Positions 6,820 through 36,063 are shown, counted from the stretch's first letter. The stretch is DNA of 64,000 nt from an uncultured Bacteroidota bacterium (GCA_902557655.1 CACEAZ010000001.1:7699-71698), one strand, 5' to 3'. Notes: generated from the sequence alone by a model not told the origin. Numbers and translations are program-made.

Positions 6820-8979
<2,160 letters not shown>

Positions 8980-9136: not shown

Positions 9137-9222
9137 GCTGAAGTGGTGGAATTGGTAGACACGTTGGACTTAAAATCCAATGGATAGTAATATCCGTGCG
9201 GGTTCAAGTCCCGCCTTCAGTA
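9137..9222 (+). tRNA. tRNA-Leu (anticodon TAA), long variable arm, no encoded CCA
   Basis: Acceptor GCTGAAG/CTTCAGT (G1-U72 wobble), anticodon arm TTGGA-CTTAAAA-TCCAA, long variable arm GGATA..TATCC, T arm GCGGG-TTCAAGT-CCCGC, discriminator A. Confidence 0.9.
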
Positions 9223-9247
9223 CATAATATCCTCAAGAATAATAATT

Positions 9248-9255
9248 TATTTTTG
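9248..9255 (+). promoter_or_regulatory. Candidate -7 box (TATTTTTG) in front of the FISUMP gene, possibly the promoter of the whole PUL
   Basis: Exact TAnnTTTG 28 nt upstream of ATG 9283. No comparable box exists in the 36-nt gap before SusC. Confidence 0.4.
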
Positions 9256-9282
9256 GGGATATTTTTTTTTATATTTAGTAAT

Positions 9283-10179
9283 ATGAAAAAAATTATTCTA
9301 TCATTCGTAATGATCCCTGCTTTGTGCTTTGCTCAAGGGGAAGATGCTGACATCCTATTAAATGGTACAGTAAGTGCTTTAAATAATCAAATCAAAGATG
9401 TTAACTATCCAACCGAAGCCCAAGATGCGGTAAACTTAGTTTTTTTGATGAATAAGTTATCTGACTTACAAGACCAGATTGATGTACTTATGTACTTATC
9501 TCTATCAGATGCTGGAACTGTTATGGATCAAGATGGTAATATTTATAGATATCTACTCTATGGAGATCAAATATGGACAGTGCAAAATGCAGCAGTAATC
9601 ACTTACCGAGATGGCACACCGATTCCTCAAGTAACTGATGATGCAGAGTGGGCTAATCTTGTGACCGGTGCATGGTGTTATTACAATAATGACCCTACAA
9701 AAGGAATTCTCTATAATTGGTATGCTGTAGCAGGAATACACGATACTGATCCAAATACTCCAAACAAAGAACTAGCTCCATTGGGATGGCATATTCCATC
9801 AGACCAAGAATGGTTAGAACTAGAATCATTTCTTATAACAAATGGATATAATTATGACGGTAGTAGTTCAGGAAACAACCTTCCCAAAGCTATAGCTTCA
9901 AAATATGGGTGGAATACCTCTGATACATTTGGCGTACCAGGGAATGATCAATATTTAAATAATTCAAGTGGTTTTAACGCCAAACCTACTGGGACAAGAT
10001 ATGGTTTTCAGTCAGGATCTTTTTCAGAGGCAGGTTCACTCGCAGTTTTCTGGACTAGCACCCCATCTTTTGATGATTATGCGTACTTTTATACACTTGG
10101 AAATGAAAGCGATAGCACACATCTCTATGGTGGTAATTTTATAAGCCAAGGTATGTCTGTTCGTTTTGTAAAGGATTAG
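9283..10179 (+). CDS. Secreted FISUMP-domain protein (Fibrobacter succinogenes major paralogous domain, TIGR02145-like)
   Basis: The track ORF starts at 9196 inside tRNA-Leu, so it is trimmed to ATG 9283 (MKKIILSFVMIPALCFAQ signal peptide). Domain hallmarks: DQDGNIYRYLLYGDQIWTVQN, GILYNWYAV, APLGWHIPSDQEWLELE, FNAKPTGTRY, FWTST, MSVRFVKD. Confidence 0.7.
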   Translation: MKKIILSFVMIPALCFAQGEDADILLNGTVSALNNQIKDVNYPTEAQDAVNLVFLMNKLSDLQDQIDVLMYLSLSDAGTVMDQDGNIYRYLLYGDQIWTVQNAAVITYRDGTPIPQVTDDAEWANLVTGAWCYYNNDPTKGILYNWYAVAGIHDTDPNTPNKELAPLGWHIPSDQEWLELESFLITNGYNYDGSSSGNNLPKAIASKYGWNTSDTFGVPGNDQYLNNSSGFNAKPTGTRYGFQSGSFSEAGSLAVFWTSTPSFDDYAYFYTLGNESDSTHLYGGNFISQGMSVRFVKD

Positions 10180-10215: not shown

Positions 10216-13200
10216 ATGATGAGTGGGAGATTATATGTAATCTTTTTTCTTTTTTTTACATTCAGTTTAAATTCGTCAGCACAAAGTTTTTATTCAGGCA
10301 CTGTTATTGATGAAAATGATGCACCTATTTTTGGCGCATCTATAACATTAAAAAACAATTCCAATTTTGCCCTGTCAGATATTGACGGCAAATTCGTGAT
10401 AGAGGCAAAAAATAACGACATATTATTAATTAGTTATTCAGGATACAAAAATTTAGAATTTCAATTGTCAAATAATTATGAACTGAATAATATTATTTTA
10501 AAGGAAGATATCAGGTTACTTGACGAAGTAGTTGTTATCGGTTATGGAAATCAAAGAAAAGAAATATTAACCAGTTCTGTTAGTTTAGTTAAAGGAGACG
10601 ATTTAACCAATGAGCCTGTTTTGAATGCAACTCAAGCATTACAAGGAAAGGCAGCAGGTGTTCAGATAATATCGTCTGATGCTCCTGGAGTTGCTTCACA
10701 GGTAATTATTCGTGGTCTCGGAACAATACAAGCTGGACGTGAGCCACTTTATGTTGTTGATGGGATTTTGACCAACAATATTAATAATATAAATACAGCA
10801 GATATAGAAACTGTCACTGTTTTGAAAGATGCTGCTTCTTTAGCCATTTACGGAAATAGAGGAGCTAACGGGGTTATAATTGTTAACACAAAAAAGGGTG
10901 GAGAAGAAGAAATTAAAGTATCATATGATAATTTCATCGGAATCAGAGATATCAGTTATAGGCCTGTTATGGCTAACTCAAACTCATTTGTCACATATAG
11001 TAATGAGGCAATTCTATTCAATCTTCTTAACGATTCAAATCCTAACAATGACAATGATTTAAGTGCTTTTTTTCCATCAGAACAGTTATATAATACTAAT
11101 TGGATAAAAGAAATTAGTCAGTTAGCATTTCAAAGCAACCATAATATATCAGCTGCAGGTGGTAATGAAAATTTAAAAACTTTTTTTAGTGTTGGATTAA
11201 ATCAGGAGGAAGGGATTTTAAAAGGTAGTGAATTAGAGAGGGCTACGCTAAGAAGTAATTTGGATTATAAAATTTCTGAAAAAATTAAATATTCACATAA
11301 TATTAGCTTTCAACTCGCAAATTCACAACCCAAAAGTTTTGGTGTTTTTACAACAGCTTATAAGCAAGCTCCAATTGTTCCCGTGAGAGATGAAAATGGT
11401 AGATACGGTTCCTCTGTTGCTTTTAATAATGTAGGTAATCCAGTTGCACAGCTTAATCTACAAAATGAAAAACAACGTTTTTTAAAACTTCAAGGCTCGT
11501 TTAAAATAGATTATGAAATTATAGATAATCTAAATTTTACATCTCGTTTTTCTGTTGAAACAAACCACAATCGTTTTTATAATTTTGATAACAGACTTGC
11601 AACCTATCTTTCATTAGAACCTGGAAATACAATTGATAATTTTCAACCAACAGACCCAGAGGCTGAACAAATTCCAGAAACTGTTTTATATGTGGCTCAT
11701 AGTAATGATTATCGTTGGTTTTTCGATAATTATTTTACTTACAAGAAAACATTTAATGATTCTCATAATATTGATGTCACTTTGGGTTTAGTGGCTGAAG
11801 AAAACAAATATGAAACCCTTTACGGGTCAAGAATAAACGTTCCTGCTGATGAAAATTTAAATTTTAATTTGAATTTAGGAAATAATAACGATGGTACAGA
11901 AGGTTCTGGAGGAGGTTTCTCAGAAACTAGAAAACTGTACTCATATATATCTCGTTTAAATTATGATTTTGACAAAAAATATCTTTTTAATTTTTCATTT
12001 AGAAAAGATGCTTCAAATTTCTTTCAAGAAAAATATCGATATGGTAATTTCTATGCATTAAGTGCTGGTTGGTACCTTAGTAAAGAAAGTTTTATGGAAG
12101 AAAGTGGTTTTGATATACTCAAATCAAGAATTAGTTATGGAAAATTAGGTAATGCGCAGATCCCCAGTTTAAATATTGTTCGTTACAATCAAGGGTTTTC
12201 CTATCCATTTGGAGCTAATCAGGATGTCCAACAGGGTGGAACGGTAACCGCTACAGTACAAGAAGATTTGTCTTGGGAATCAACATACGAATTTAACTTT
12301 GGAATTGAATTCGCACTTTTAGATTTTAAACTTAACGGTGAAATAGATTTTTATGAAAGGATTAACAGCAATGCTATTTTGCCCTTACAACTACCCAACA
12401 CATTTGGATTTGACCCATTTCTATCACATGTTGGTGAAATTAAAAATATGGGAGTTGAGCTAAGCTTAGATTGGAAGGATAGAATAAATGATGACCTATC
12501 TTATTCGATTAATACAAATTTATCTTATAATAAAAATGAACTAAGTAAAATATCAAATCAATTTTTTACCAATCAAACAGGCGGAAATATTAATAATGGT
12601 CAGTACACCAAAAGAGTTTCAATTGGACAACCTTTAGGAAGCTTCTATTTATATGAAATAGCAGGAATTGATGATCGTGGTGAATTTGTTTATAAAGATC
12701 TAAATGATGACGGTGAGATAAATGAAAATGATAGAAGATTTTTTGGCACATATATTCCTTCTTTAGTATCCTCTTTTAACATAAAAGTTATTTATAAAAA
12801 CTTTGATATTAATATTGCAACTTATGGTAGTTTTGGCAATAAAGTTTATAACGGTAAAAAAGCACAAAGATTTGGTAATGAGAATATTGAGCAATTTGTT
12901 TTTAATAATCGTTGGACAAGTGGTAGACCAAGTACAAATACTCCGATAGCATCTAATAATGTACCTCTTTCTTCAAACTATTTTTTAGAGTCTGGAGATT
13001 ATTTTAGAATTAATAATTTTACAATAGGATACACATTTGAAAGAGAAAATTCAAAATTATTTAAGAATACTAGACTGTATTTTACGGCAAAAAATCCATT
13101 AATAATCAAGAAATTTTCAGGATACACACCTGAACTTCCTGGTGATCCAATGGGTTTAGCCGGAGTAGAGCTGGATGCATATCCTACGCTTAGCTCATTT

Positions 13201-13227
13201 TACCTAGGAATAAATATGTCGTTTTAA
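10216..13227 (+). CDS. SusC/RagA-family TonB-dependent outer-membrane transporter
   Basis: Signal peptide, CarboxypepD_reg-like N-terminus (GTVIDENDAPIFGASITLKN), plug (VVVIGYGNQRKEILTSSV, LQGKAAGVQI, PLYVVDGI, DIETVTVLKDAASLAIYGNRGANGVIIV), a large barrel and a C-terminal aromatic residue. There is no STN/anti-sigma signalling domain. Confidence 0.9.
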   Translation: MMSGRLYVIFFLFFTFSLNSSAQSFYSGTVIDENDAPIFGASITLKNNSNFALSDIDGKFVIEAKNNDILLISYSGYKNLEFQLSNNYELNNIILKEDIRLLDEVVVIGYGNQRKEILTSSVSLVKGDDLTNEPVLNATQALQGKAAGVQIISSDAPGVASQVIIRGLGTIQAGREPLYVVDGILTNNINNINTADIETVTVLKDAASLAIYGNRGANGVIIVNTKKGGEEEIKVSYDNFIGIRDISYRPVMANSNSFVTYSNEAILFNLLNDSNPNNDNDLSAFFPSEQLYNTNWIKEISQLAFQSNHNISAAGGNENLKTFFSVGLNQEEGILKGSELERATLRSNLDYKISEKIKYSHNISFQLANSQPKSFGVFTTAYKQAPIVPVRDENGRYGSSVAFNNVGNPVAQLNLQNEKQRFLKLQGSFKIDYEIIDNLNFTSRFSVETNHNRFYNFDNRLATYLSLEPGNTIDNFQPTDPEAEQIPETVLYVAHSNDYRWFFDNYFTYKKTFNDSHNIDVTLGLVAEENKYETLYGSRINVPADENLNFNLNLGNNNDGTEGSGGGFSETRKLYSYISRLNYDFDKKYLFNFSFRKDASNFFQEKYRYGNFYALSAGWYLSKESFMEESGFDILKSRISYGKLGNAQIPSLNIVRYNQGFSYPFGANQDVQQGGTVTATVQEDLSWESTYEFNFGIEFALLDFKLNGEIDFYERINSNAILPLQLPNTFGFDPFLSHVGEIKNMGVELSLDWKDRINDDLSYSINTNLSYNKNELSKISNQFFTNQTGGNINNGQYTKRVSIGQPLGSFYLYEIAGIDDRGEFVYKDLNDDGEINENDRRFFGTYIPSLVSSFNIKVIYKNFDINIATYGSFGNKVYNGKKAQRFGNENIEQFVFNNRWTSGRPSTNTPIASNNVPLSSNYFLESGDYFRINNFTIGYTFERENSKLFKNTRLYFTAKNPLIIKKFSGYTPELPGDPMGLAGVELDAYPTLSSFYLGINMSF

Positions 13228-13237
13228 TTAATTACTT

Positions 13238-14680
13238 ATGAAGAAAAATAATAGTAAATTAAAAATATTAATTGGGACATTTATAGTAGTAAACTTATTT
13301 ACCATATCCTGTTCTGAAGAGTTTTTAGAAATAGAAGCTAATCAAATTACTGCTAACTCTATAACTGAGGAACAAGCTGTTGAACTGGTAAACGGTATTT
13401 ATAATATTTTTTTAAGTTGGCAGGTAAGTTCATTTTCATGGAATGGTATTACAAGTATTGCTAGTGATGATGCTGATAAAGGAAGTGATCAAGGAGATAC
13501 CGGTTCAGATAAACATCTTTTGGATGCCTTAAACCATGATGCAACATCTATTTCTGTTGCTGAATTATGGGAAGGTCATTTCAATGGCATACAAAGAGCT
13601 AATCAAGCCATTAACAGAATACAACCATTCGATGATTTGGATAATGAATTAAAAACAAGACTTTTAGGAGAAGCAAAATTTTTACGAGCCTTATTATATT
13701 TTAGGTTGTTACAAACATTTGGTGAACTCCCACTTATTACAGAAACACCAGACATCAATTCCCCGCTTGAAGAATTATTAAGTAGAGCAACAATTGATGA
13801 AACTTTTTTATTTATTGAAGGTGATTTGATTCAAGCGATAGAATCGCTACCAAATAAGAATCAATACCCAAATATTGAATTAGGAAGAGCCACAAAGGGA
13901 GCAGCAAAAACACTTTTGGCTAAGGTATGTATGTATCAAGAAAAATGGGATAATGTCCTGGCTTTGACAAATGAAGTGATTGAATCAGGTGAATATAGTC
14001 TGACATCAAATTACGAAGATATTTGGAAAGAAATTGGTGAAAACAACGAAGAATCAATTTTTGAAATTCAAGCAAAAGGTGCAATTCCGTCAGTGGGGGT
14101 AGATAAATATAGCTTGACCCAAGGAGCAAGGGGTGAAGGCGGTTGGGGCTGGGGTTTTAATGTACCTAGTACTGACCTTCTAAATTCTTATGAGGAAAAT
14201 GATCTTAGAAGAGATGCTACTATAATTTTTAGAGGTGAGACTTTATACGATGGGAGATATGTTCCTGAATCAGTTGTCAATGAAATGTATAATCAGAAAG
14301 CCTACTCTAGTGCTTTTACAGAGTTTGAGCAAACTGGTAAAAATATCAGGATACTGAGATATGCTGAAGTTTTATTAATGAATGCTGAAGCGGCAATTCA
14401 TTTAGGAGGTGACGTTTCAGGTCCTATTAACCAATTAAGATCTAGAGCAGGATTAAATACTCTAAACAGCCCAACACAATTAGATGTTTGGAATGAGAGA
14501 AGATGGGAGTTAGCTTTTGAACATGACAGATACTTTGATTTGGTAAGACAAGGGAGGGCAGCTTCAGTTTTACAATCACTCGGCAAGCCATTTATTACCG
14601 GAAAGCACGAGTTATTTCCTATCCCACAACAGCAGATAGACCTAAGTAACGGTATTTTAACCCAAAACCCAGGATGGTAA
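13238..14680 (+). CDS. SusD/RagB-family glycan-binding outer-membrane lipoprotein
   Basis: Lies immediately downstream of SusC, with a lipobox (FTISC). Typical SusD motifs are present: RALLYFRLLQTFGELPL, LLAKVCMYQEKWD, RYAEVLLMNAEA, ERRWELAFEHDRYFDLVR, FPIPQQQID. Confidence 0.9.
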   Translation: MKKNNSKLKILIGTFIVVNLFTISCSEEFLEIEANQITANSITEEQAVELVNGIYNIFLSWQVSSFSWNGITSIASDDADKGSDQGDTGSDKHLLDALNHDATSISVAELWEGHFNGIQRANQAINRIQPFDDLDNELKTRLLGEAKFLRALLYFRLLQTFGELPLITETPDINSPLEELLSRATIDETFLFIEGDLIQAIESLPNKNQYPNIELGRATKGAAKTLLAKVCMYQEKWDNVLALTNEVIESGEYSLTSNYEDIWKEIGENNEESIFEIQAKGAIPSVGVDKYSLTQGARGEGGWGWGFNVPSTDLLNSYEENDLRRDATIIFRGETLYDGRYVPESVVNEMYNQKAYSSAFTEFEQTGKNIRILRYAEVLLMNAEAAIHLGGDVSGPINQLRSRAGLNTLNSPTQLDVWNERRWELAFEHDRYFDLVRQGRAASVLQSLGKPFITGKHELFPIPQQQIDLSNGILTQNPGW

Positions 14681-14690
14681 ATAAAGAATT

Positions 14691-16022
14691 ATGAAATTAA
14701 ATATTTTCTATAAAATTGGATTACTTACACTGTTTTTTGGGATTTTTTCCTGTACAAATCCAAATGATATTGATCCGCCGCCGCCAGATGTGGGCTTTAT
14801 TCCTGTTGATAATGTAGATGTAATTCCTTTTGAAGATTTGCTAACATTAACTCAACATCAAACTTTCAAATATTTTTGGGATTTTGCTGAACCTATTAGT
14901 GGTTTGGCCAGAGAGGATAGTGAAAGAACTAATATAATTACAACCGGGGGTTCAGGATTTGGTATTGCCTCATTTATAGTTGGTATTGAGAGAGGATGGG
15001 TGAGCCGTGATGATGTAATAAACCGTATGGAAACTGTTTTAACTTTTTTAGAAGGAGCTGACAAATATCATGGTGCTTTTTCCCATTGGTATAATAGCTC
15101 TGGGAATACAATTGAATTTGGCGATTTAGATGACGGTGGTGATATAGTAGAAACGGCACTGTTAATTCAGGGTTTGTTGATTGCAAGACAATATTTTTCA
15201 AATAATAATGAAGAGGAAATAGAGCTGAGAAATAGAATTACAAATATTTGGGAAGATGTTGAGTGGACATGGTATACGCAAGGACAAAATAAAATTACTT
15301 GGCATTGGTCTCCAAATCATGATTTTGCAATAAATTTAGATGTAAGAGGTTGGAATGAAGCTCTTATTGTGTATGTATTGGCTTCATCCTCACCAACATA
15401 CCCAATTAATTCTGATGTCTATAACGATGGTTGGACAAGAGAGGGTGCTTTTGTTAATTCTGGAACTTTTTACGATATATTTTTACCATTAGGTGAAAAT
15501 TTTGGAGGACCCCTATTTTATTCTCATTACTCGTTTGTAGGAATAGATCCAAGAAATTTAGAAGATCAATACACAAATTATTTTGATCAAAATAGAGCAC
15601 ACTCATTGATTAATTATGATCATTGTGTATCAAATCCAAATAACTATGGTGGTTACAGTGATGATAGTTGGGGTATTACTGCAAGTACTAACTATAATGG
15701 ATACTCGGCACATAGTCCAAATAATGATTTGGGTGTTATTTCACCAACAGCTGCTTTATCATCTTTTCCTTATACACCTTTAGAATCCAAAAAAGCACTT
15801 GAAAATTTTTATTATAATTTAAATGACGAATTATGGGGTGATTATGGGTTTTTTGATGCCTTTTCAATTCATTATAATTGGTATTCTGATAGATATCTAG
15901 CTATAGATCAAGGACCGATAATATTGATGATAGAAAATTATCGAACGCAATTATTATGGAATCTTTTCATGCAAGACCAAGAAATTATTGATGGATTAAA
16001 TAACTTGGGTTTTATTTTTTAA
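14691..16022 (+). CDS. Putative (alpha/alpha)6 glucoamylase-family (PF10091-like, GH144-like) beta-glucan hydrolase lipoprotein
   Basis: Lipobox (GIFSC). The segments FKYFWDFAEPISGLARE, GGSGFGIASFIVGIERGW, YHGAFSHWYN, DDGGDIVETALLIQGLLIARQYF and WEDVEWTWY match my recollection of proteins annotated as glucoamylase family protein in Bacteroidetes. The family call comes from memory only. Confidence 0.5.
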   Translation: MKLNIFYKIGLLTLFFGIFSCTNPNDIDPPPPDVGFIPVDNVDVIPFEDLLTLTQHQTFKYFWDFAEPISGLAREDSERTNIITTGGSGFGIASFIVGIERGWVSRDDVINRMETVLTFLEGADKYHGAFSHWYNSSGNTIEFGDLDDGGDIVETALLIQGLLIARQYFSNNNEEEIELRNRITNIWEDVEWTWYTQGQNKITWHWSPNHDFAINLDVRGWNEALIVYVLASSSPTYPINSDVYNDGWTREGAFVNSGTFYDIFLPLGENFGGPLFYSHYSFVGIDPRNLEDQYTNYFDQNRAHSLINYDHCVSNPNNYGGYSDDSWGITASTNYNGYSAHSPNNDLGVISPTAALSSFPYTPLESKKALENFYYNLNDELWGDYGFFDAFSIHYNWYSDRYLAIDQGPIILMIENYRTQLLWNLFMQDQEIIDGLNNLGFIF

Positions 16023-16089: not shown

Positions 16090-17295
16090 ATGAGAAAATT
16101 TATATTATTTATCACTTTGCTCTTAGGTTATTTTACCTTTGGTCAATGCTCTGACCCGGTTATTACAAATTTTGAATGTGGAGATGCTAGTCAAACTATT
16201 TTAGGCAATGGAATTATTACTGTCGCAAATACTTTTCAAACTGGAATTAACAAATCAGCCAATATTGGAGAATACTCCGATGATGGGACTAATGGATGGG
16301 ATAATTTATTAATAGACTTTGAAAGTGAAATAGATCTTTCCTCAAATCCTTACTTAAGTTTTAAGCTATATTCTTCCGCATCTATACAAGTTTTAGCTAA
16401 ACTTGAGGGAGGCTCAGAATTAGAGTTATGGTCTGACTATAGTTTAGAAAATACATGGGAAGAATTTAATTTTGATTTCAGTGATGCTGTATCAAACGGT
16501 AATACAAAACTAGTTTTGTTCTTTAATGCTGCTCAAGAATCAGGAACATCATCTGACATATATTATATTGATGATATTAGATTTACTAACTCGAGTAATA
16601 ATCTCCCGATGATTTCAGATTTTGAAAGCTTAAATCCATCAGTTCCTCTCTCAGGGAATATTCAAACTGTATCAAATCCATTCTATGATGGGATTAATAC
16701 ATCGACAAACGTTGGAGAATATATTGATGATGGAACCAATGGATGGGATAATTTATTAATAGACTTTGAAAGTGAAATAGATCTTTCTTCAAATCCTTAT
16801 CTAACTTTTAAACTATACTCTACATCCTCTATTCAAGTTTTAGCAAAATTAGAAGGAGATACAGACACTGAGGTTTGGTCAGATTATAGCCAAGAAAACA
16901 CTTGGGAGGAATTTAACTTTGATTTTAGCACTTCTGTCGGTAACGGTAATACTAAACTTATCTTATTCTTTAATGCTTCGCAAGAATCAGGAACATCGAC
17001 AGATATTTATCATATTGATGATATTCGTTTTACATCCTCTTTATCTTTAACTGAAGAAGGGATTTCTGAATTAATTCTGTATCCAAATCCAGTTTTTAAT
17101 ATTTTAAATATTAGATCCAATGATATTATCAATTCGTATAAGTTGTATGATGTTCATGGTAGACTTATTTTAAATGAAAATAATATAAATAGCAAAAATT
17201 TTGAGATTGATATTTCAAATCTTGATTCTGATATTTATATTCTAAATACATATTCTGAATCAAAACAGGAGTCTTTTAAGATATTAAAAAAATAA
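16090..17295 (+). CDS. T9SS-secreted surface protein with two tandem copies of an unassigned CBM-like module
   Basis: Signal peptide, module 1 (about aa 24-166), module 2 (about aa 174-316), then a C-terminal Por/T9SS sorting domain (ELILYPNPVFNILNIRSN...IYILNTYSE...FKILKK). Confidence 0.65.
   Translation: MRKFILFITLLLGYFTFGQCSDPVITNFECGDASQTILGNGIITVANTFQTGINKSANIGEYSDDGTNGWDNLLIDFESEIDLSSNPYLSFKLYSSASIQVLAKLEGGSELELWSDYSLENTWEEFNFDFSDAVSNGNTKLVLFFNAAQESGTSSDIYYIDDIRFTNSSNNLPMISDFESLNPSVPLSGNIQTVSNPFYDGINTSTNVGEYIDDGTNGWDNLLIDFESEIDLSSNPYLTFKLYSTSSIQVLAKLEGDTDTEVWSDYSQENTWEEFNFDFSTSVGNGNTKLILFFNASQESGTSTDIYHIDDIRFTSSLSLTEEGISELILYPNPVFNILNIRSNDIINSYKLYDVHGRLILNENNINSKNFEIDISNLDSDIYILNTYSESKQESFKILKK
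16159..17035 (+). repeat. Intragenic tandem duplication, period 447 bp (149 codons)
   Basis: 16291-16340 is identical to 16738-16787 (50 nt: aatggatgggataatttattaatagactttgaaagtgaaatagatctttc). Similarity is high but imperfect on both sides. Confidence 0.9.
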
Positions 17296-17322
17296 TTTTA
17301 AAAAATAAATCAAAAATCAATT

Positions 17323-18858
17323 ATGGACAGCCTAAATTTTTCTCTCAAAAGTTCCCTATTATTTTTGATTTTGATAGTTTTTTCGTCTTGTGAAGATGAT
17401 TTTCAAGACTTCCCTGTTATAAGCTACAATCCTTGTGATTTAGAGGGTGTAATTATTAACCCTGATATTATAACTGACTTCGAATGTCAGTCAAATTTCA
17501 TATTAGACAATGTAGAAACTGTTCGAAATCCTTCTGAAACTCCTTTGAATACCAGTAATTTTGTTGGTTTATACACAGACACACAAGAACCAACAGATTT
17601 TATTGAAATTGACTATGGATCTCCCATTGATTTATCAACTAATACAGTTTTTAAAATTAAAGTCAAGACCGAAATTTCAGGTGAATTAAGGGTTATGATG
17701 GACGGAGGCTTATCCGAACCGGTTGTTCAGTCACAAAATGTTAATGGCGATAATGCATGGGGAATTTATATTTTTGATTTTAGTTGGAGGCAATATGAAA
17801 ATCATACCAAATTAAAAGTTTTTTTTAATTATGGGGTTGAGGTAATTGGTAGTACACCAAACTTATATTACATAGACGATTTGTTTTTTGATACTTTTGT
17901 TGATCCATGTGAAAATTTTACTGAAAATAATAATATTTTAAGTGATTTTGAATGTCAGCAGAATTATGAATTATCAAGTGTTAATAATGAAATTCAACTG
18001 GTAAACAACCCATATCCTAATGAAATTAATAATAGTATTTTTGTTGGCCAATATATTGATGATGGTTCAGACGGGTCAGATGCATTAACAATTAATTTTA
18101 ACAACCCTATAAATCTTACAGAAAACCCTCAATTACATATAAAAATTCATTCATCCTTAAGCTCACCACTATTGGCAAGACTCGAAGGTGGAGAATCACC
18201 CATAGAAATAAACAACAACATAAATTTGACAAACGAATGGGTTAATTATGTATTTGATTTTAGTTTATCAGCGAATGATCAAACACAACTAAAAATTTTC
18301 TTCAATCACAATATAACAAACGGAACCTTAACCGATATGTATTATATTGATGATTTGATGTTTCTACCTGCACCATGTGATGAGCCTGTAATTGAAAACT
18401 GTTCAAATGTTGTACAAGATTATAATATAATTAGTGATTGGAATTGTCAACAGAATTATGGGATTGAAACTACTGTTCCAAGTGTATTAAATCCGTTAAT
18501 TAGCTGTGATAACAGAAGTGAGAATGTCGGTCAATATACTGATGATGGAACAGAGGCATATGATGCTTTTATATTAAATTATGGTTCAATTATTAATTTA
18601 AATACACACAACAGATTAAAATTTAAGCTTTACTCTAATTCATCAATTCAAGTTTTAGCAAAACTTGAAGGAGGATCCGCAATTGAAAAATGGTCAGACT
18701 TTAGTACGGTTAATACATGGCAAGAATTTTCTTATGATTTTAGCGACTCAATTGATAACGAAAACACTACACTTGTTTTGTTTTTCAATGCCGGTCAAAA
18801 TAATGGGAACCCAGAGGATATTTATTATATTGATGAACTCCGATGGGAAGAAAATTAG
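17323..18858 (+). CDS. Surface lipoprotein with three copies of the same CBM-like module
   Basis: Lipoprotein signal (LILIVFSSC). Modules lie at about aa 48-189, 205-347 and 368-509. The third is closest to the modules of the preceding gene (KFKLYSNSSIQVLAKLEGGS...NTWQEFSYDFSD...LVLFFNAGQ...DIYYIDELRW). Confidence 0.65.
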   Translation: MDSLNFSLKSSLLFLILIVFSSCEDDFQDFPVISYNPCDLEGVIINPDIITDFECQSNFILDNVETVRNPSETPLNTSNFVGLYTDTQEPTDFIEIDYGSPIDLSTNTVFKIKVKTEISGELRVMMDGGLSEPVVQSQNVNGDNAWGIYIFDFSWRQYENHTKLKVFFNYGVEVIGSTPNLYYIDDLFFDTFVDPCENFTENNNILSDFECQQNYELSSVNNEIQLVNNPYPNEINNSIFVGQYIDDGSDGSDALTINFNNPINLTENPQLHIKIHSSLSSPLLARLEGGESPIEINNNINLTNEWVNYVFDFSLSANDQTQLKIFFNHNITNGTLTDMYYIDDLMFLPAPCDEPVIENCSNVVQDYNIISDWNCQQNYGIETTVPSVLNPLISCDNRSENVGQYTDDGTEAYDAFILNYGSIINLNTHNRLKFKLYSNSSIQVLAKLEGGSAIEKWSDFSTVNTWQEFSYDFSDSIDNENTTLVLFFNAGQNNGNPEDIYYIDELRWEEN

Positions 18859-18879
18859 AAATTGAATAATTATCAAATC

Positions 18880-21123
18880 ATGAAAAAAATTTCAATAGCT
18901 ACAATTGTTTTGTCAATATTTAGTCACTGCCTTTATTTAGGCGCAAATAATTATAATCCAGAAACAGATATCTATAGAAAAGTGGATTCTTTAATGAGTC
19001 TGATGACATTAGATGAAAAAATTGGACAAACAATTATGTATAGTGGTGATTGGAACAATACAGGACCATATGTAAATTCAGATAATATGAGATTCCTTAA
19101 AGAAGGTAATCTAGGCTCAATGTTAAATGTATATACATCGAAAGGGACCAGAGAATTACAAAAAATTGCTGTTGAGGAGACTCGTTTAGGTATTCCTTTG
19201 CTTTTTGGTTATGACGTCATACATGGTTTTAAAACAATTTTTCCAATAAACTTAGGAATTGCGTCAGGTTGGGATCTTGAAGATGTGGAGGAGGTAGCCA
19301 GAATATCAGCTGATGAAGCTTCGGCCGCAGGAGTACATTGGACATTTGCTCCGATGATTGATATCGCTAGAGATCCTCGTTGGGGGCGTGTATCTGAAGG
19401 ATCTGGTGAAGATGTTTATTTAACTAGCGAAATTGCTAAAGCGTATGTAAAAGGGTTTCAAGGTAATAGTCTCACTAATGAAAATACAATTTTAGCATGT
19501 GCAAAACATTTTGTTGGATATGGAGCTGCTCAAGCAGGTAGAGATTATCATACTGTTAGTATGGGTGATAATGAGCTTAGAAATGTATATATGCCTCCGT
19601 TTAAAGCAGCAATTGATTCGGGTGTTGAAACATTTATGACTGCTTTTAATGAGCTTAATGGTGTACCTGCAACAGCAAACAAATATATATTTAAGGACAT
19701 TCTTAGAGATGAATGGGGATTTAACGGATTTGTAGTTACAGATTACACAGCGATTAACGAGTTGGTAAATCATGGATATGCTGAAAATGAAAAACATGCT
19801 ACTGAATTAGCTATTAACTCAGGTATTGATATGGATATGATGAGTGGTGCATATAGGCGTTTTTTAAAAGAATTGATAATTGAAGGTAAAGTTGAGGAAA
19901 CATTGATAAATGAAGCGTGTAGAAAAATTCTTATTGCCAAATTTAAATTAGGTTTATTTGATGACCCTTATAAGTATTGTAACGAACAAAGAGAAGAAGA
20001 AACCATCTATCGCCCTAAATTTTTAGAATTTGCAAGAAAAATAGCATCTAAATCGTCCGTTTTACTTAAAAATATTGATAAAACTCTTCCTATAAACAAT
20101 AAACTAACTGTTGCATTGATAGGTCCACTCGCAAAGGATAAAAAAAACATCATAGGTAGCTGGGCAGCTGCAGGGGATAGAAACGGAAAAGCAATTAGCA
20201 TATATCAAGGAATAAAAGAATATTTAGATGATTCGAACATTATGTTTGCTAGGGGCTGTGATATTGAAAGTAATGATTATAGTGGATTCGATAAAGCCAT
20301 TAACATAGCCAAAAAAGCAGATAAAATAATAATGGTTTTGGGTGAAGATTATAATATGAGTGGGGAAGCTGCAAGTAGAACCAATATTAAACTTCCTGGA
20401 ATTCAAACACAGTTGATTAAAACTATAAGGGATGAATTACCCAACAAACAAATTATTTTAGTATTAATGAATGGTCGCCCTCTGGATCTGACAATCGAAG
20501 ATTCTCTAGCTGATGCTATATTAGAGGTTTGGTATCCAGGAACTAGTGGAGGGCTTGGCGTTGCAGATATTTTATTTGGAAAATATAATCCATCTGCAAA
20601 ACTACCTATTACTTTTCCAAGAAATCTTGGTCAAGTACCAATTTATTATAATCAAAAAAATACTGGGAGACCAATTTCAAAAGAAAACCCAACCGAAGAT
20701 TATAAATCAAATTATATAGATTCGCCAAACACTCCATTATATCCATTTGGTCACGGTCTTAGCTATACAACTTTTAAATACTCTGAAATTAAATTATCCA
20801 ATGATAAGCTTAAAGAATCCGAAATATTAAAAGCAAGCTCAACAATTACCAATACAGGGGATTATGACGGACATGAGGTAGTTCAATTATATATTCGTGA
20901 TAAAGTTGGAAGTATTACAAGGCCTATCAAAGAATTAAAAGGTTTTAAAAAAATATTTCTTAAAAAAGGAGAGAGTAAAACAGTTGTTTTTGAGATTTCA
21001 AGTGAGGACTTAAAATTTTACAATAACAAAAAATTAATTCTTGAATCTGGTGAATTTGAAATAGCCATAAGTCCCAGTTCAGATTTTGAGTTCAATAAAT
21101 TATTCAACCTGATTTTAAATTAA
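18880..21123 (+). CDS. bglX: Glycoside hydrolase family 3 beta-glucosidase (BglX-like), exported
   Basis: The track start TTG 18862 is trimmed to ATG 18880 (MKKISIATIVLSIF). GH3 motifs: LDEKIGQ, GIPLLFGYDVIHG, APMIDIARDPRWGRVSEG, KHFVGYG, GFVVTDY (nucleophile Asp context), and a C-terminal FnIII-like domain. Confidence 0.9.
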   Translation: MKKISIATIVLSIFSHCLYLGANNYNPETDIYRKVDSLMSLMTLDEKIGQTIMYSGDWNNTGPYVNSDNMRFLKEGNLGSMLNVYTSKGTRELQKIAVEETRLGIPLLFGYDVIHGFKTIFPINLGIASGWDLEDVEEVARISADEASAAGVHWTFAPMIDIARDPRWGRVSEGSGEDVYLTSEIAKAYVKGFQGNSLTNENTILACAKHFVGYGAAQAGRDYHTVSMGDNELRNVYMPPFKAAIDSGVETFMTAFNELNGVPATANKYIFKDILRDEWGFNGFVVTDYTAINELVNHGYAENEKHATELAINSGIDMDMMSGAYRRFLKELIIEGKVEETLINEACRKILIAKFKLGLFDDPYKYCNEQREEETIYRPKFLEFARKIASKSSVLLKNIDKTLPINNKLTVALIGPLAKDKKNIIGSWAAAGDRNGKAISIYQGIKEYLDDSNIMFARGCDIESNDYSGFDKAINIAKKADKIIMVLGEDYNMSGEAASRTNIKLPGIQTQLIKTIRDELPNKQIILVLMNGRPLDLTIEDSLADAILEVWYPGTSGGLGVADILFGKYNPSAKLPITFPRNLGQVPIYYNQKNTGRPISKENPTEDYKSNYIDSPNTPLYPFGHGLSYTTFKYSEIKLSNDKLKESEILKASSTITNTGDYDGHEVVQLYIRDKVGSITRPIKELKGFKKIFLKKGESKTVVFEISSEDLKFYNNKKLILESGEFEIAISPSSDFEFNKLFNLILN

Positions 21124-33435: not shown

Positions 33436-36063
33436 ATGGATTCAATGATGATATACATGCCAATAATAATGTCAGTTTTAGGCCTTGCTTATGTTTTTGT
33501 AAGAAGGTCTTGGGTAATGAAACAAGATGCCGGAGATGGAAAAATGAAAGAAATTTCTGATCATATTTATGAAGGAGCTTTAGCTTTTTTAAATGCTGAA
33601 TATCGTTTATTATCGGTTTTTGTACTTATTGTAAGTGCAGTTTTAGCAGGAATCTCATTTATAGTCCCTACAACTCACATTCTAATTGTTGTATCATTTA
33701 TTTTTGGAGCATTTTTCTCTGCCTATGCTGGAAATATAGGAATGAAAATAGCTACAAAAACAAATGTAAGAACTACTCAAGCTGCTAAAACATCACTACC
33801 AAATGCATTAAAAATTTCCTTTGCAGGTGGAACAGTTATGGGCTTAGGTGTTGCAGGTTTAGCAGTTTTAGGTTTAACAGCCTTTTTTATAATATTTTTC
33901 AACCACTTTATGGGTGGTGTGTGGTCCGCTACAGATTACGGATCTGCCAGTGATACCATGACAATTGTTTTAGAAACATTAGCTGGATTTTCATTAGGTG
34001 CTGAATCTATTGCATTGTTTGCCAGAGTAGGTGGTGGAATTTATACAAAAGCTGCTGATGTAGGAGCTGACTTGGTAGGAAAAGTTGAAGCTGGAATTCC
34101 TGAAGATGATCCTAGAAATCCTGCTACAATTGCAGATAATGTGGGAGATAATGTAGGGGATGTTGCAGGTATGGGAGCTGATTTGTTTGGTTCATACGTA
34201 GCAACTGTATTGGCTGCAATGGTTCTTGGAAATTATGTAATAGTAGATATGGGCGGTTCAATCGAAGATGCTTTTGGAGGAATCGGACCAATTTTATTGC
34301 CTATGGCTATTGCAGGTGTTGGTATCATCATTTCATTAATCGGTACATTGTTTGTAAAAATTAATTCCAATGATGCAAAAGAAGCTGAGGTTATGGGAGC
34401 CTTAAACAAAGGAAACGGTATCTCAATAATCTTAGTTGCAATATCTTGTTTTTTTCTTGTAGATTATATGCTTCCAGGTACTTTGAATATGGAATTTTTT
34501 GGTGAAGGATTAAAAGAAATTCCTTCTATGAATGTATTCTATGCTACCTTAACAGGTTTAATTGTTGGATGGTTTATTTCAGCAATCACCGAATATTATA
34601 CGGGATTGGGTAAAAAACCTGTTCTTGAAATTGTTCAGAAATCTAGTACTGGGGCAGCGACCAATATTATTGCTGGTTTGGCAACGGGTATGATTTCTAC
34701 TTTTGGTTCTGTTATCCTATTTGCTGCTGCAATTTGGGCTGCATATGCATTTGCTGGATTTTATGGTGTTGCATTATCTGCATCTGCTATGATGGCAACA
34801 ACTGGAATGCAGCTAGCTATTGATGCATTTGGGCCAATTTCTGATAATGCTGGAGGTGTTGCTGAAATGAGTGGTCAAGACCCAATTGTTAGAGAAAGAA
34901 CAGACATATTGGATTCAGTTGGTAATACTACTGCTGCTACTGGAAAAGGTTTTGCAATTGCTTCAGCTGCATTGACTTCACTTGCATTATTTGCAGCTTA
35001 TGTAACATTTACTGGAATTGAGGGAATTAATATTTTCAAAGCTCCAGTTTTAGCAATGTTATTTGTAGGAGGGATGGTACCTGTGGTATTTTCAGCTCTA
35101 GCTATGAATGCTGTTGGAAAGGCTGCCATGGAAATGGTATATGAAGTAAGAAGACAGTTTAAAGAAATCCCTGGAATTATGAAAGGGAAAGCAAAGCCCG
35201 AATATGATAAATGTGTTGATATTTCAACAAAGGCATCTCTAAGAGAAATGATGCTTCCAGGAATTTTAACGATTGGAACACCGATCATAATTACTGTGCT
35301 TCCAATGCTTTTTGGATTAGACAATCAATTAATTGCAGAGATGTTAGGAGGATACATGGCTGGTGTTACTGTTAGTGGTGTTTTATGGGCAATTTTCCAA
35401 AATAATGCTGGTGGTGCTTGGGATAATGCAAAAAAATCTTTTGAAGCAGGTGTTGAAATTAATGGAGAAATGACATTTAAAGGATCTGATGCTCACAAAG
35501 CATCTGTTACCGGAGATACTGTTGGTGATCCTTTTAAGGACACCTCTGGTCCGTCAATGAATATTCTTATCAAATTAACTTGCCTTATTGGTTTAGTTAT
35601 CGCCCCAATATTAGGTGGGCATGGAACACATCATACTGATGAGGCTGCAACAAACTATATTTATGATGCAACGTACTTAGACTCTTTTGAAATAGGCAAT
35701 GATGCAAAAGTATTACTTGTTCAAGGAATGGTTAGAGATTTAATTGCCAAAGACTACGCTAAGGTTGCTGAATATTTATCAGATGATGTTGTTTTTAATC
35801 TTTCTGACGGTTCTTCAGTTGAAGGTAAAGAAGAAGCAATGAAATTTATTTCAGACACTTATTCAGGAGTTGATATTAAAGATTATAATGTAGCAGTAAA
35901 TTTTGCTGTTACCGGAGATAATGGAGATGAGTGGGTACTTTTATGGGACAATGGAAAAGTTGTTGCCGATGGAAATGTCACTAGTTTAAACTGGATGGAA
36001 TCATTCAGATTTGACGGTGATAAGATTGCTTTTATTAACCAATTTTCTAAATCAAGAAATTAA
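33436..36063 (+). CDS. hppA: Membrane-bound ion-translocating pyrophosphatase (K+-dependent type) with an extra C-terminal NTF2/SnoaL-like domain of about 145 aa
   Basis: [51 protein letters not shown] (the Ala at the K+-dependence position) and [21 protein letters not shown]. After the last TM helix (about aa 728) the frame continues with a soluble domain showing an NTF2-like pattern. Confidence 0.9.

Follow-up and report, generated by a model that had tools for sequence, protein, structure and literature searches.

Tandem modules of a GH144-linked X584/CBMxx clade in two exported proteins of a SusC/SusD locus, with beta-1,2-glucan as candidate ligand

Two adjacent genes in the genome of an uncultured Bacteroidota bacterium encode exported proteins, here called A and B, that together carry five copies of a single module. 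The genes were studied within a stretch of 64,000 nucleotides (GCA_902557655.1 CACEAZ010000001.1:7699-71698), referred to below as the window, in which positions are counted from the first letter. They belong to a locus with the order SusC, SusD, GH144, A, B, GH3 (GH, glycoside hydrolase family). Judged from their sequence, the modules are a distinct, GH144-linked clade of the laminarin-binding X584/CBMxx family of carbohydrate-binding modules (CBMs), and the neighboring GH144 enzyme makes beta-1,2-glucan the prime candidate for their ligand, which a first-pass annotation of the window had given as unknown.

The Locus and Its Two Modular Proteins

Both genes had been drawn in the first-pass annotation with the boundaries listed in Table 1, and the open reading frames (ORFs) confirm them. 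They had been placed between a "glucoamylase-family" gene and a GH3 gene; the placement holds, but the label does not, as the product of the upstream neighbor matches 5gzh (E 1.8e-139), a PDB entry entitled "Endo-beta-1,2-glucanase". The different export or anchor signals read earlier on the two proteins are both found.

Protein A consists of a Sec signal peptide, two modules and a type A C-terminal sorting domain of the type IX secretion system (T9SS), as described before, and the sorting domain scores well above the curated cutoffs of two models (PF18962, 45.1 bits against 27; TIGR04183, 41.1 bits against 23). In Bacteroidetes, cleavage of the signal peptide before a Gln follows the "Q-rule", and on this basis mature A probably begins at the Gln that ends its hydrophobic leader. 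The leaders of homologous T9SS partners likewise end in ...GQC or ...SQC. The acidic lipoprotein export signal is lacking in A. Its two modules are 73% identical, which suggests a recent duplication.

Protein B combines a lipoprotein signal (VFSSC) with three modules, again in line with the first reading of its sequence. In Bacteroidetes, acidic residues that follow the lipidated Cys act as an export signal to the cell surface. A search with protein B returned 347 proteins, and among the best 120 of these 347, which were analyzed together with their 456 modules, 96 have at least two acidic residues within the five residues after the first Cys. Protein B itself, with EDDFQD behind its lipobox, is predicted to be flipped to the cell surface.

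Table 1. Features of the two modular proteins and of the neighboring genes in the window
Feature	Position	Strand	Evidence
Protein A, 401 aa: Sec signal peptide, modules A1 and A2, T9SS type A C-terminal domain	16090..17295	+	ORF; Por_Secre_tail matches
Signal peptide of A, MRKFILFITLLLGYFTFGQ	16090..16146	+	Read from sequence; hydrophobic leader ending FGQ
Module A1, aa 20-169, Cys pair C20/C30	16147..16596	+	Strict X584 HMM 78.6 bits, E 1.4e-25, HMM positions 7-160
Module A2, aa 170-317, both Cys lost	16597..17040	+	Strict X584 HMM 81.0 bits, E 2.6e-26
T9SS type A sorting domain, aa 330-401	17077..17292	+	PF18962 E 1.3e-11; TIGR04183 E 1.3e-10
Protein B, 511 aa: lipoprotein with modules B1, B2 and B3	17323..18858	+	ORF
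Lipoprotein signal peptide of B, lipobox VFSSC (C23), then EDDFQD	17323..17391	+	Read from sequence (LILIVFSSC)
Module B1, aa 38-195, most diverged copy	17434..17907	+	Strict X584 HMM 36.6 bits, E 1.2e-12
Module B2, aa 196-351	17908..18375	+	Strict X584 HMM 59.3 bits, E 1.2e-19
Module B3, aa 352-511, four Cys (two putative disulfides)	18376..18855	+	Strict X584 HMM 62.8 bits; AF2-modelled module
SusC-like TonB-dependent transporter	10216..13227	+	TIGR04056 761 bits; Plug and CarbopepD_reg_2 domains
SusD-like protein	13238..14680	+	PF07980 E 7.6e-30; PF14322 E 5.9e-22
GH144-family endo-beta-1,2-glucanase homolog	14691..16022	+	PF10091 E 2.3e-71; 5gzh E 1.8e-139; 4gl3 E 3.2e-144
GH3 BglX-type beta-glucosidase, periplasmic by signal peptide	18862..21123	+	NF011678 815.7 bits vs cutoff 666
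GH97 SusB-like alpha-glucosidase	6832..8979	+	Pfam GH97; 8wg0 E 1.7e-285

Five Copies of One Module and Their Homologs

The five modules are 148-160 aa long, 35-73% identical to the first copy, and align with 27 invariant columns. The common skeleton of motifs reported earlier is present in all of them, save for exceptions that the first-pass annotation had already listed; among the departures, B1 has RVMMDGG and TDTQ, and A2 has DIYHIDD and LEGD. A hidden Markov model (HMM) of the family scores its own modules at 140-225 bits, so that the shared repeat is far beyond chance.

A pair of Cys residues near the N-terminus, also noted before, is found in four of the five window copies, with both residues lost in A2. 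Of the 456 modules, 433 have both Cys, 11 have neither and 11 have one. The two residues are usually spaced by 15-17 positions, and by 10 in the N-terminal modules of T9SS proteins. Such joint retention or loss is compatible with a disulfide. Module B3 has four Cys at its start (C352, C360, C375 and C395; window 18376-18510), of which the second pair consists of one residue about 8 positions before the usual first Cys and another in the motif SC.NRS. The Cys of this motif is kept in 110 of the 120 homologs, and the second pair is specific to modules in the last position and absent from middle modules.

A look-up for sequences identical to protein B gave no record. Nearly all of the 347 homologs come from marine Flavobacteriaceae, and nearly all are annotated as "hypothetical". 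Four modules are the rule among the best 120 (94 proteins); three are found in 25, and five in a single T9SS protein. Modules in the same position are 58-60% identical across species, compared with 44-55% for different positions, and the repeats therefore appear to be old and not interchangeable. B1 is orthologous to position 1 of the four-module homologs (mean identity 47%, versus 37-40% to the other positions). Marine metagenomes, Tara and GOS among them, supply the closest relatives of the window proteins (92-98% identity). Among relatives with a name, the nearest are from metagenome-assembled genomes (MAGs) of an uncultured "Flavobacteriaceae bacterium", and the closest protein cluster holds 683 member sequences from marine surveys.

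Fold and Relation to the X584/CBMxx Family

On the modules, every Pfam and NCBIfam model stays below its threshold. CBM_4_9 (PF02018) scores 22.2 bits on protein B against a cutoff of 25.9, over profile positions 94-130 only, which correspond to the last strand. It has no match in protein A, and it is detected at E ≤ 0.01 in 16 of 48 family modules. Weak matches to SoxZ, Polysacc_lyase, CBM60 and BppA domain 1 were rejected as chance or superfamily noise, being below threshold and confined to short stretches.

The first-pass annotation had further concluded that the module could not be placed in any CBM family, and this has to be revised. When a profile of the modules is searched against the sequences of the PDB, 8qx6 comes first (E 7e-10 for a profile of the five window sequences, E 2.7e-13 for 48 sequences), with CBM70 and CBM4 behind it at E around 1e-3. 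The same entry emerges from the fold. The AlphaFold2 (AF2) model of B3 is a beta-sandwich of high confidence (predicted local distance difference test score, pLDDT, 94; predicted template modeling score, pTM, 0.88), and a Foldseek comparison with the PDB has 8qx6_A as the top match (TM 0.69/0.67, E 1.9e-7, probability 1.00, 21-23% identity). Next follow CBM4, CBM8, CBM61, CBM11 and an uncharacterized module of a GH50 agarase, at TM 0.47-0.61. The structure prediction and comparison proposed in the first pass thus yield a CBM match, and the likeness to jelly rolls of the CBM4_9/CBM22 type seen there is retained (CBM4, CBM11 and CBM61 at TM about 0.5).

The title of 8qx6 in the PDB is "Novel laminarin-binding CBM X584". 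We take X584/CBMxx to be the family published under the number CBM102. The number CBM103 is used in a 2026 preprint for a different Formosa protein. The entry 8QX6 fits the description of CBMxx_IV, the C-terminal repeat of the surface glycan-binding protein (SGBP) of Christiangramia forsetii, crystallized with laminaritriose; this Cf-SGBP is a lipoprotein with four CBMxx repeats and binds laminarin (bioRxiv 10.1101/2023.09.07.556657). In CBMxx the laminarin site is a cleft on the concave sheet, deep and narrow and walled by two expansive loops with aromatic residues, and CBMxx_III, in which a loop is altered, has a shallow cleft and is a weak binder (bioRxiv 10.1101/2023.09.07.556657). GH144 is nowhere named in that paper or its supplement.

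A homolog search with a 100-aa fragment of 8qx6 gave no match, and a genome scan with the 8qx6 fragment yielded 60 X584-family loci. C. forsetii itself is not among the matches of the genome scan, and the repeats of Cf-SGBP are represented by relatives that are 88-89% identical. From close relatives of Cf-SGBP (loci L003-L036), 92 modules were used for a strict X584 HMM. The strict model was built without loci L057 and L061, whose GH144-type modules, when contained in a broader X584 HMM, inflated the cross-scores. Its matches to the five window modules extend over almost their full length (HMM positions ~7-160 of 162, E 1e-12 to 3e-26), it also matches 453 of the 456 family modules, and homology to X584 is therefore not in doubt. 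Cross-family scores are nevertheless low, at 37-81 bits versus 134-236 within X584 and 140-225 within the GH144-linked family, which sets the window modules apart as an outlying clade.

In a joint alignment, the core common to both clades consists of the motif NP..sG.N.S..VG, the (K)LE.G strand, W.E..F.F and Y.DD. Specific to the clade of the window modules are the N-terminal Cys pair, FFN instead of F.D, and the absence of a loop of ~18 residues which in X584 follows the F.F strand and which is missing from all modules of the GH144-linked type. As long loops wall the CBMxx cleft and a changed loop makes that of CBMxx_III shallow, the missing loop may alter the binding site.

Genomic Association With GH144

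A metagenome scan for the modules gave 78 loci, 23 of which are complete in the sense that the modules are flanked on either side by 4.5 kb or more. A GH144 gene is present in all 23 complete loci and also in loci L001 and L002, and every metagenome locus without it ends before the upstream region. The same loci (L001, L002 and the 23) keep the arrangement of SusC/SusD with the module genes, with SusC upstream of the latter. Dokdonia sinensis and Psychroserpens sp. Hel_I_66 both have SusC, SusD, GH144, GH3, the T9SS module protein and the lipoprotein module protein, in this order. The SusD of the window is 52-95% identical to those of related GH144 loci, versus 29-33% to those of X584/laminarin-type loci. 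The GH144 protein of the window starts, by inspection, with a lipoprotein-type signal (...FFGIFSC; window 14691-14770), for which reason this endo-glucanase is probably membrane-anchored as well.

The two modular proteins differ in how widely they occur. The lipoprotein is encoded in 23 of the 23 complete loci and the T9SS partner, with a module number that varies from two to five, in 7, so that A looks like a lineage-specific accessory. The SGBP-like role assigned in the first-pass annotation agrees with the setting in a SusC/SusD polysaccharide utilization locus (PUL), whereas dual anchoring as a fixed feature of the system does not survive this comparison.

On the X584 side, GH144 is absent from 58 of 58 other X584-type loci examined. 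Within the scan it is confined to L057 (a Saprospiraceae MAG) and L061 (a Chitinophagales MAG), and only there are modules encoded that carry the Cys pair and score as GH144-linked (142 and 141 bits). In each of the two, one T9SS protein (L057:7436-10681, L061:2-2527) mixes such modules with modules of the X584 type (103 and 104 bits), and L057 encodes two GH144 paralogs. Both types also occur in separate places of one sequence: scaffold NZ_KE384218.1 of Gillisia sp. JM1 has the X584 SGBP locus L010 and the GH144-linked module protein P0118, and a MAG contig of 3,599,660 bp has the X584-type locus L043 and the GH144-linked module protein P0086.

Marine Bacteroidota PULs that contain GH144 are already seen as putative beta-1,2-glucan loci, and their BguR regulators fall into a laminarin and a beta-1,2-glucan clade (bioRxiv 10.64898/2026.01.10.698779). 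This division of the regulators runs parallel to that of the binding modules.

Comparison With Known Systems

Like X584/CBMxx, the window modules are homologous beta-sandwich modules of ~150-160 aa, with the core motifs described above in common. The context is similar too, with tandem repeats in a non-catalytic lipoprotein of marine Flavobacteriaceae whose gene follows SusC/SusD, a GH3 gene nearby and a copy number that varies by species. In contrast to X584/CBMxx, the GH144-linked modules are associated with GH144 and not with GH16 (GH16_3), GH17 or GH30. They are 21-23% identical to 8QX6, reach in the cross-HMM comparison about one third of the within-family scores, and differ in the Cys pair, the FFN motif and the missing loop. 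GH144-linked proteins also have no N-terminal immunoglobulin (Ig)-like modules, unlike Cf-SGBP, and some of their lineages add a T9SS-exported paralog.

With CBM4, CBM9 and CBM22 (e.g., 1gui, 3p6b) the modules have in common the jelly-roll superfold and similar strands at both ends, DFE-like at the N-terminus and Y.DD at the C-terminus; 1gui is the CBM4 of Thermotoga Lam16A, a beta-glucan binder. The resemblance stays below the Pfam threshold, and the Foldseek TM is 0.47-0.55, compared with 0.67-0.69 for 8QX6.

As a PUL-encoded non-catalytic lipoprotein with tandem beta-sandwich binding domains, protein B is comparable to SGBP-B proteins in the SusE/SusF position, and the xyloglucan SGBP-B 7k44 is among the Foldseek matches of the B3 model. 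There is no sequence relationship to SusE/SusF, however, and the window gene follows the endo-glucanase gene instead of coming directly after susD, while the second protein of the window bears a T9SS signal and not a lipid anchor.

The enzymes of the locus correspond to the GH144/GH3 gene sets for beta-1,2-glucan (Chitinophaga pinensis SGL, 5gzh; marine GH144 PULs), with the same enzyme pair together with SusC/SusD. The PDB relatives of the window GH3 include 5xxl (E 5.9e-215) and 4zoa (E 2.2e-171), which we take to be beta-glucosidases active on beta-1,2-gluco-oligosaccharides. In a literature search, no paper was found that describes the CBM proteins of GH144/GH3 beta-1,2-glucan loci.

Ligand, Mechanism and Alternative Explanations

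On balance, and with somewhat better than even confidence, we favor the interpretation that A and B are non-catalytic glycan-capture proteins of a GH144/GH3 SusC/SusD locus, whose target would be linear or cyclic beta-1,2-glucan together with its sophoro-oligosaccharide products, with the modules acting as type-B-like CBMs of the GH144-linked X584 clade. In such a system, lipoprotein B would be the core SGBP on the cell surface, where its three non-identical modules would bind beta-1,2-glucan multivalently. The GH144 lipoprotein would cut the glucan, SusC/SusD would import the resulting sophoro-oligosaccharides, and the periplasmic GH3 would release glucose from them. Protein A, the shorter paralog, would be exported by the T9SS and either re-attached to the surface or released.

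Several points weigh against this interpretation. The only characterized relative of the modules binds a beta-1,3-glucan. Natural beta-1,2-glucans are considered scarce, a marine source of them is not established, and beta-1,2-glucan is itself a presumed substrate of the marine GH144 loci. Without the X584 loop the modules could have a shallow cleft or bind weakly, by analogy with CBMxx_III, and as T9SS type A cargo, A may by its sequence be either anchored or released. Furthermore, relatives of the window locus have a BguR-type regulator upstream, whereas no BguR/LuxR-type regulator was found in the 64-kb window (tblastn, best E 0.068). The query in this search was the C-terminal LuxR-type part of the upstream gene of L002 (L002:1-437), and in 14 metagenome loci that are more distant the same query finds a match upstream of SusC; loci with a regulator in this position include L095, L106, L117, L120, L131, L133-L135, L137, L139 and L140.

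The modules might instead bind laminarin or another beta-1,3-glucan, in which case the locus would be a variant laminarin/beta-glucan PUL with GH144 in charge of a minor linkage. No other marine beta-glucan comes close to laminarin in abundance, laminarin is the ligand of the nearest characterized homolog, and the GH3 enzymes of X584 loci share 47-50% identity with that of the window. Yet no laminarinase of the GH16, GH17 or GH30 type was seen in the window locus or its relatives, where the glycoside hydrolases are GH144 and GH3 only, the module subtype segregates strictly with GH144, and the SusC and SusD of the window are only ~30% identical to their counterparts in X584 loci. The presence of both types on one scaffold in Gillisia sp. 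JM1 (L010 and P0118) argues for separate roles, and the putatively cleft-forming loop of ~18 residues is absent. Taken together, these observations make laminarin an unlikely ligand. A role of the modules as structural or protein-docking domains with little or no glycan affinity, either as spacers or in the assembly of a GH144/SusCD "utilisome", would accommodate the strong divergence of B1 and the orthology of same-position modules across genera (58-60% versus 44-55%), by which the copies are not interchangeable; multimodular Cf-SGBP has non-binding Ig-like modules as well. We regard this as improbable, as all copies retain the family-wide motifs common to a proven CBM, the most frequent architecture in the related family is a protein of tandem CBMs alone, and such proteins bind glycan, and the T9SS paralog has no obvious docking partner.

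Least credible of all, in our judgment, is that the modules represent an entirely new CBM family without assignable relatives. The failure of every Pfam and NCBIfam model, with CBM_4_9 at 22.2 bits against 25.9 and confined to the last strand, and the "hypothetical" annotation of the homologs would be in keeping with it. However, the X584/CBMxx HMM matches over the full length with E down to 3e-26, 8QX6 comes first by both sequence and fold, and the proteins of L057 and L061 mix both module types.

Returning to beta-1,2-glucan as the ligand, a wider proposal can be formulated, which we put forward tentatively and hold to be possible, though short of probable. According to this proposal, the modules would be the first CBM lineage specialized for beta-1,2-glucan, possibly in its cyclic form, derived from laminarin-binding ancestors through loss of the cleft loop and gain of a disulfide; beta-1,2-glucan would be regularly harvested in the sea, and A might be a released scavenger. 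In the literature searched, no CBM dedicated to beta-1,2-glucan was found, and for CBM92 only weak binding of the terminal glucose of sophorose is described.

The consequences depend on the ligand. If the modules bind laminarin, they add one more subfamily to a family already described. If they bind beta-1,2-glucan, they would provide a specific probe for a glycan whose detection in nature is difficult, a natural example of a switch in specificity from beta-1,3 to beta-1,2 within one CBM family and, together with GH144, a marker for tracing the turnover of beta-1,2-glucan in ocean metagenomes. Should the proposal of a specialized lineage be correct, the abundance of these modules in open-ocean Flavobacteriaceae would imply that beta-1,2-glucans, which are periplasmic or secreted products of bacteria and are considered rare, are a regularly harvested carbon source in the sea. 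The two-module T9SS paralog could then be a released scavenger that returns glucan to the cell, and not a second anchored layer.

Other Genes in the Window

The window SusC is preceded by a gene with a Fib_succ_major domain, a GH97 gene and mutS. The first of these, directly upstream of SusC (9196-10179), encodes a 327-aa protein with the Fibrobacter succinogenes major paralogous domain (PF09603, E 3.4e-31). The GH97 product is an alpha-glucosidase adjoining a putative beta-glucan locus, and a GH97 gene stands beside the GH144 locus in 7 of the 78 metagenome loci (L090, L091, L093, L101, L120, L123 and L125). Both genes are possible members of the locus, the membership of GH97 being uncertain. 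Further downstream (33436-36063), and unrelated to the locus, the window encodes an unusual-looking fusion of an H+-pyrophosphatase (PF03030, E 6.7e-254) to a C-terminal SnoaL-like domain (PF12680, E 1.3e-7).

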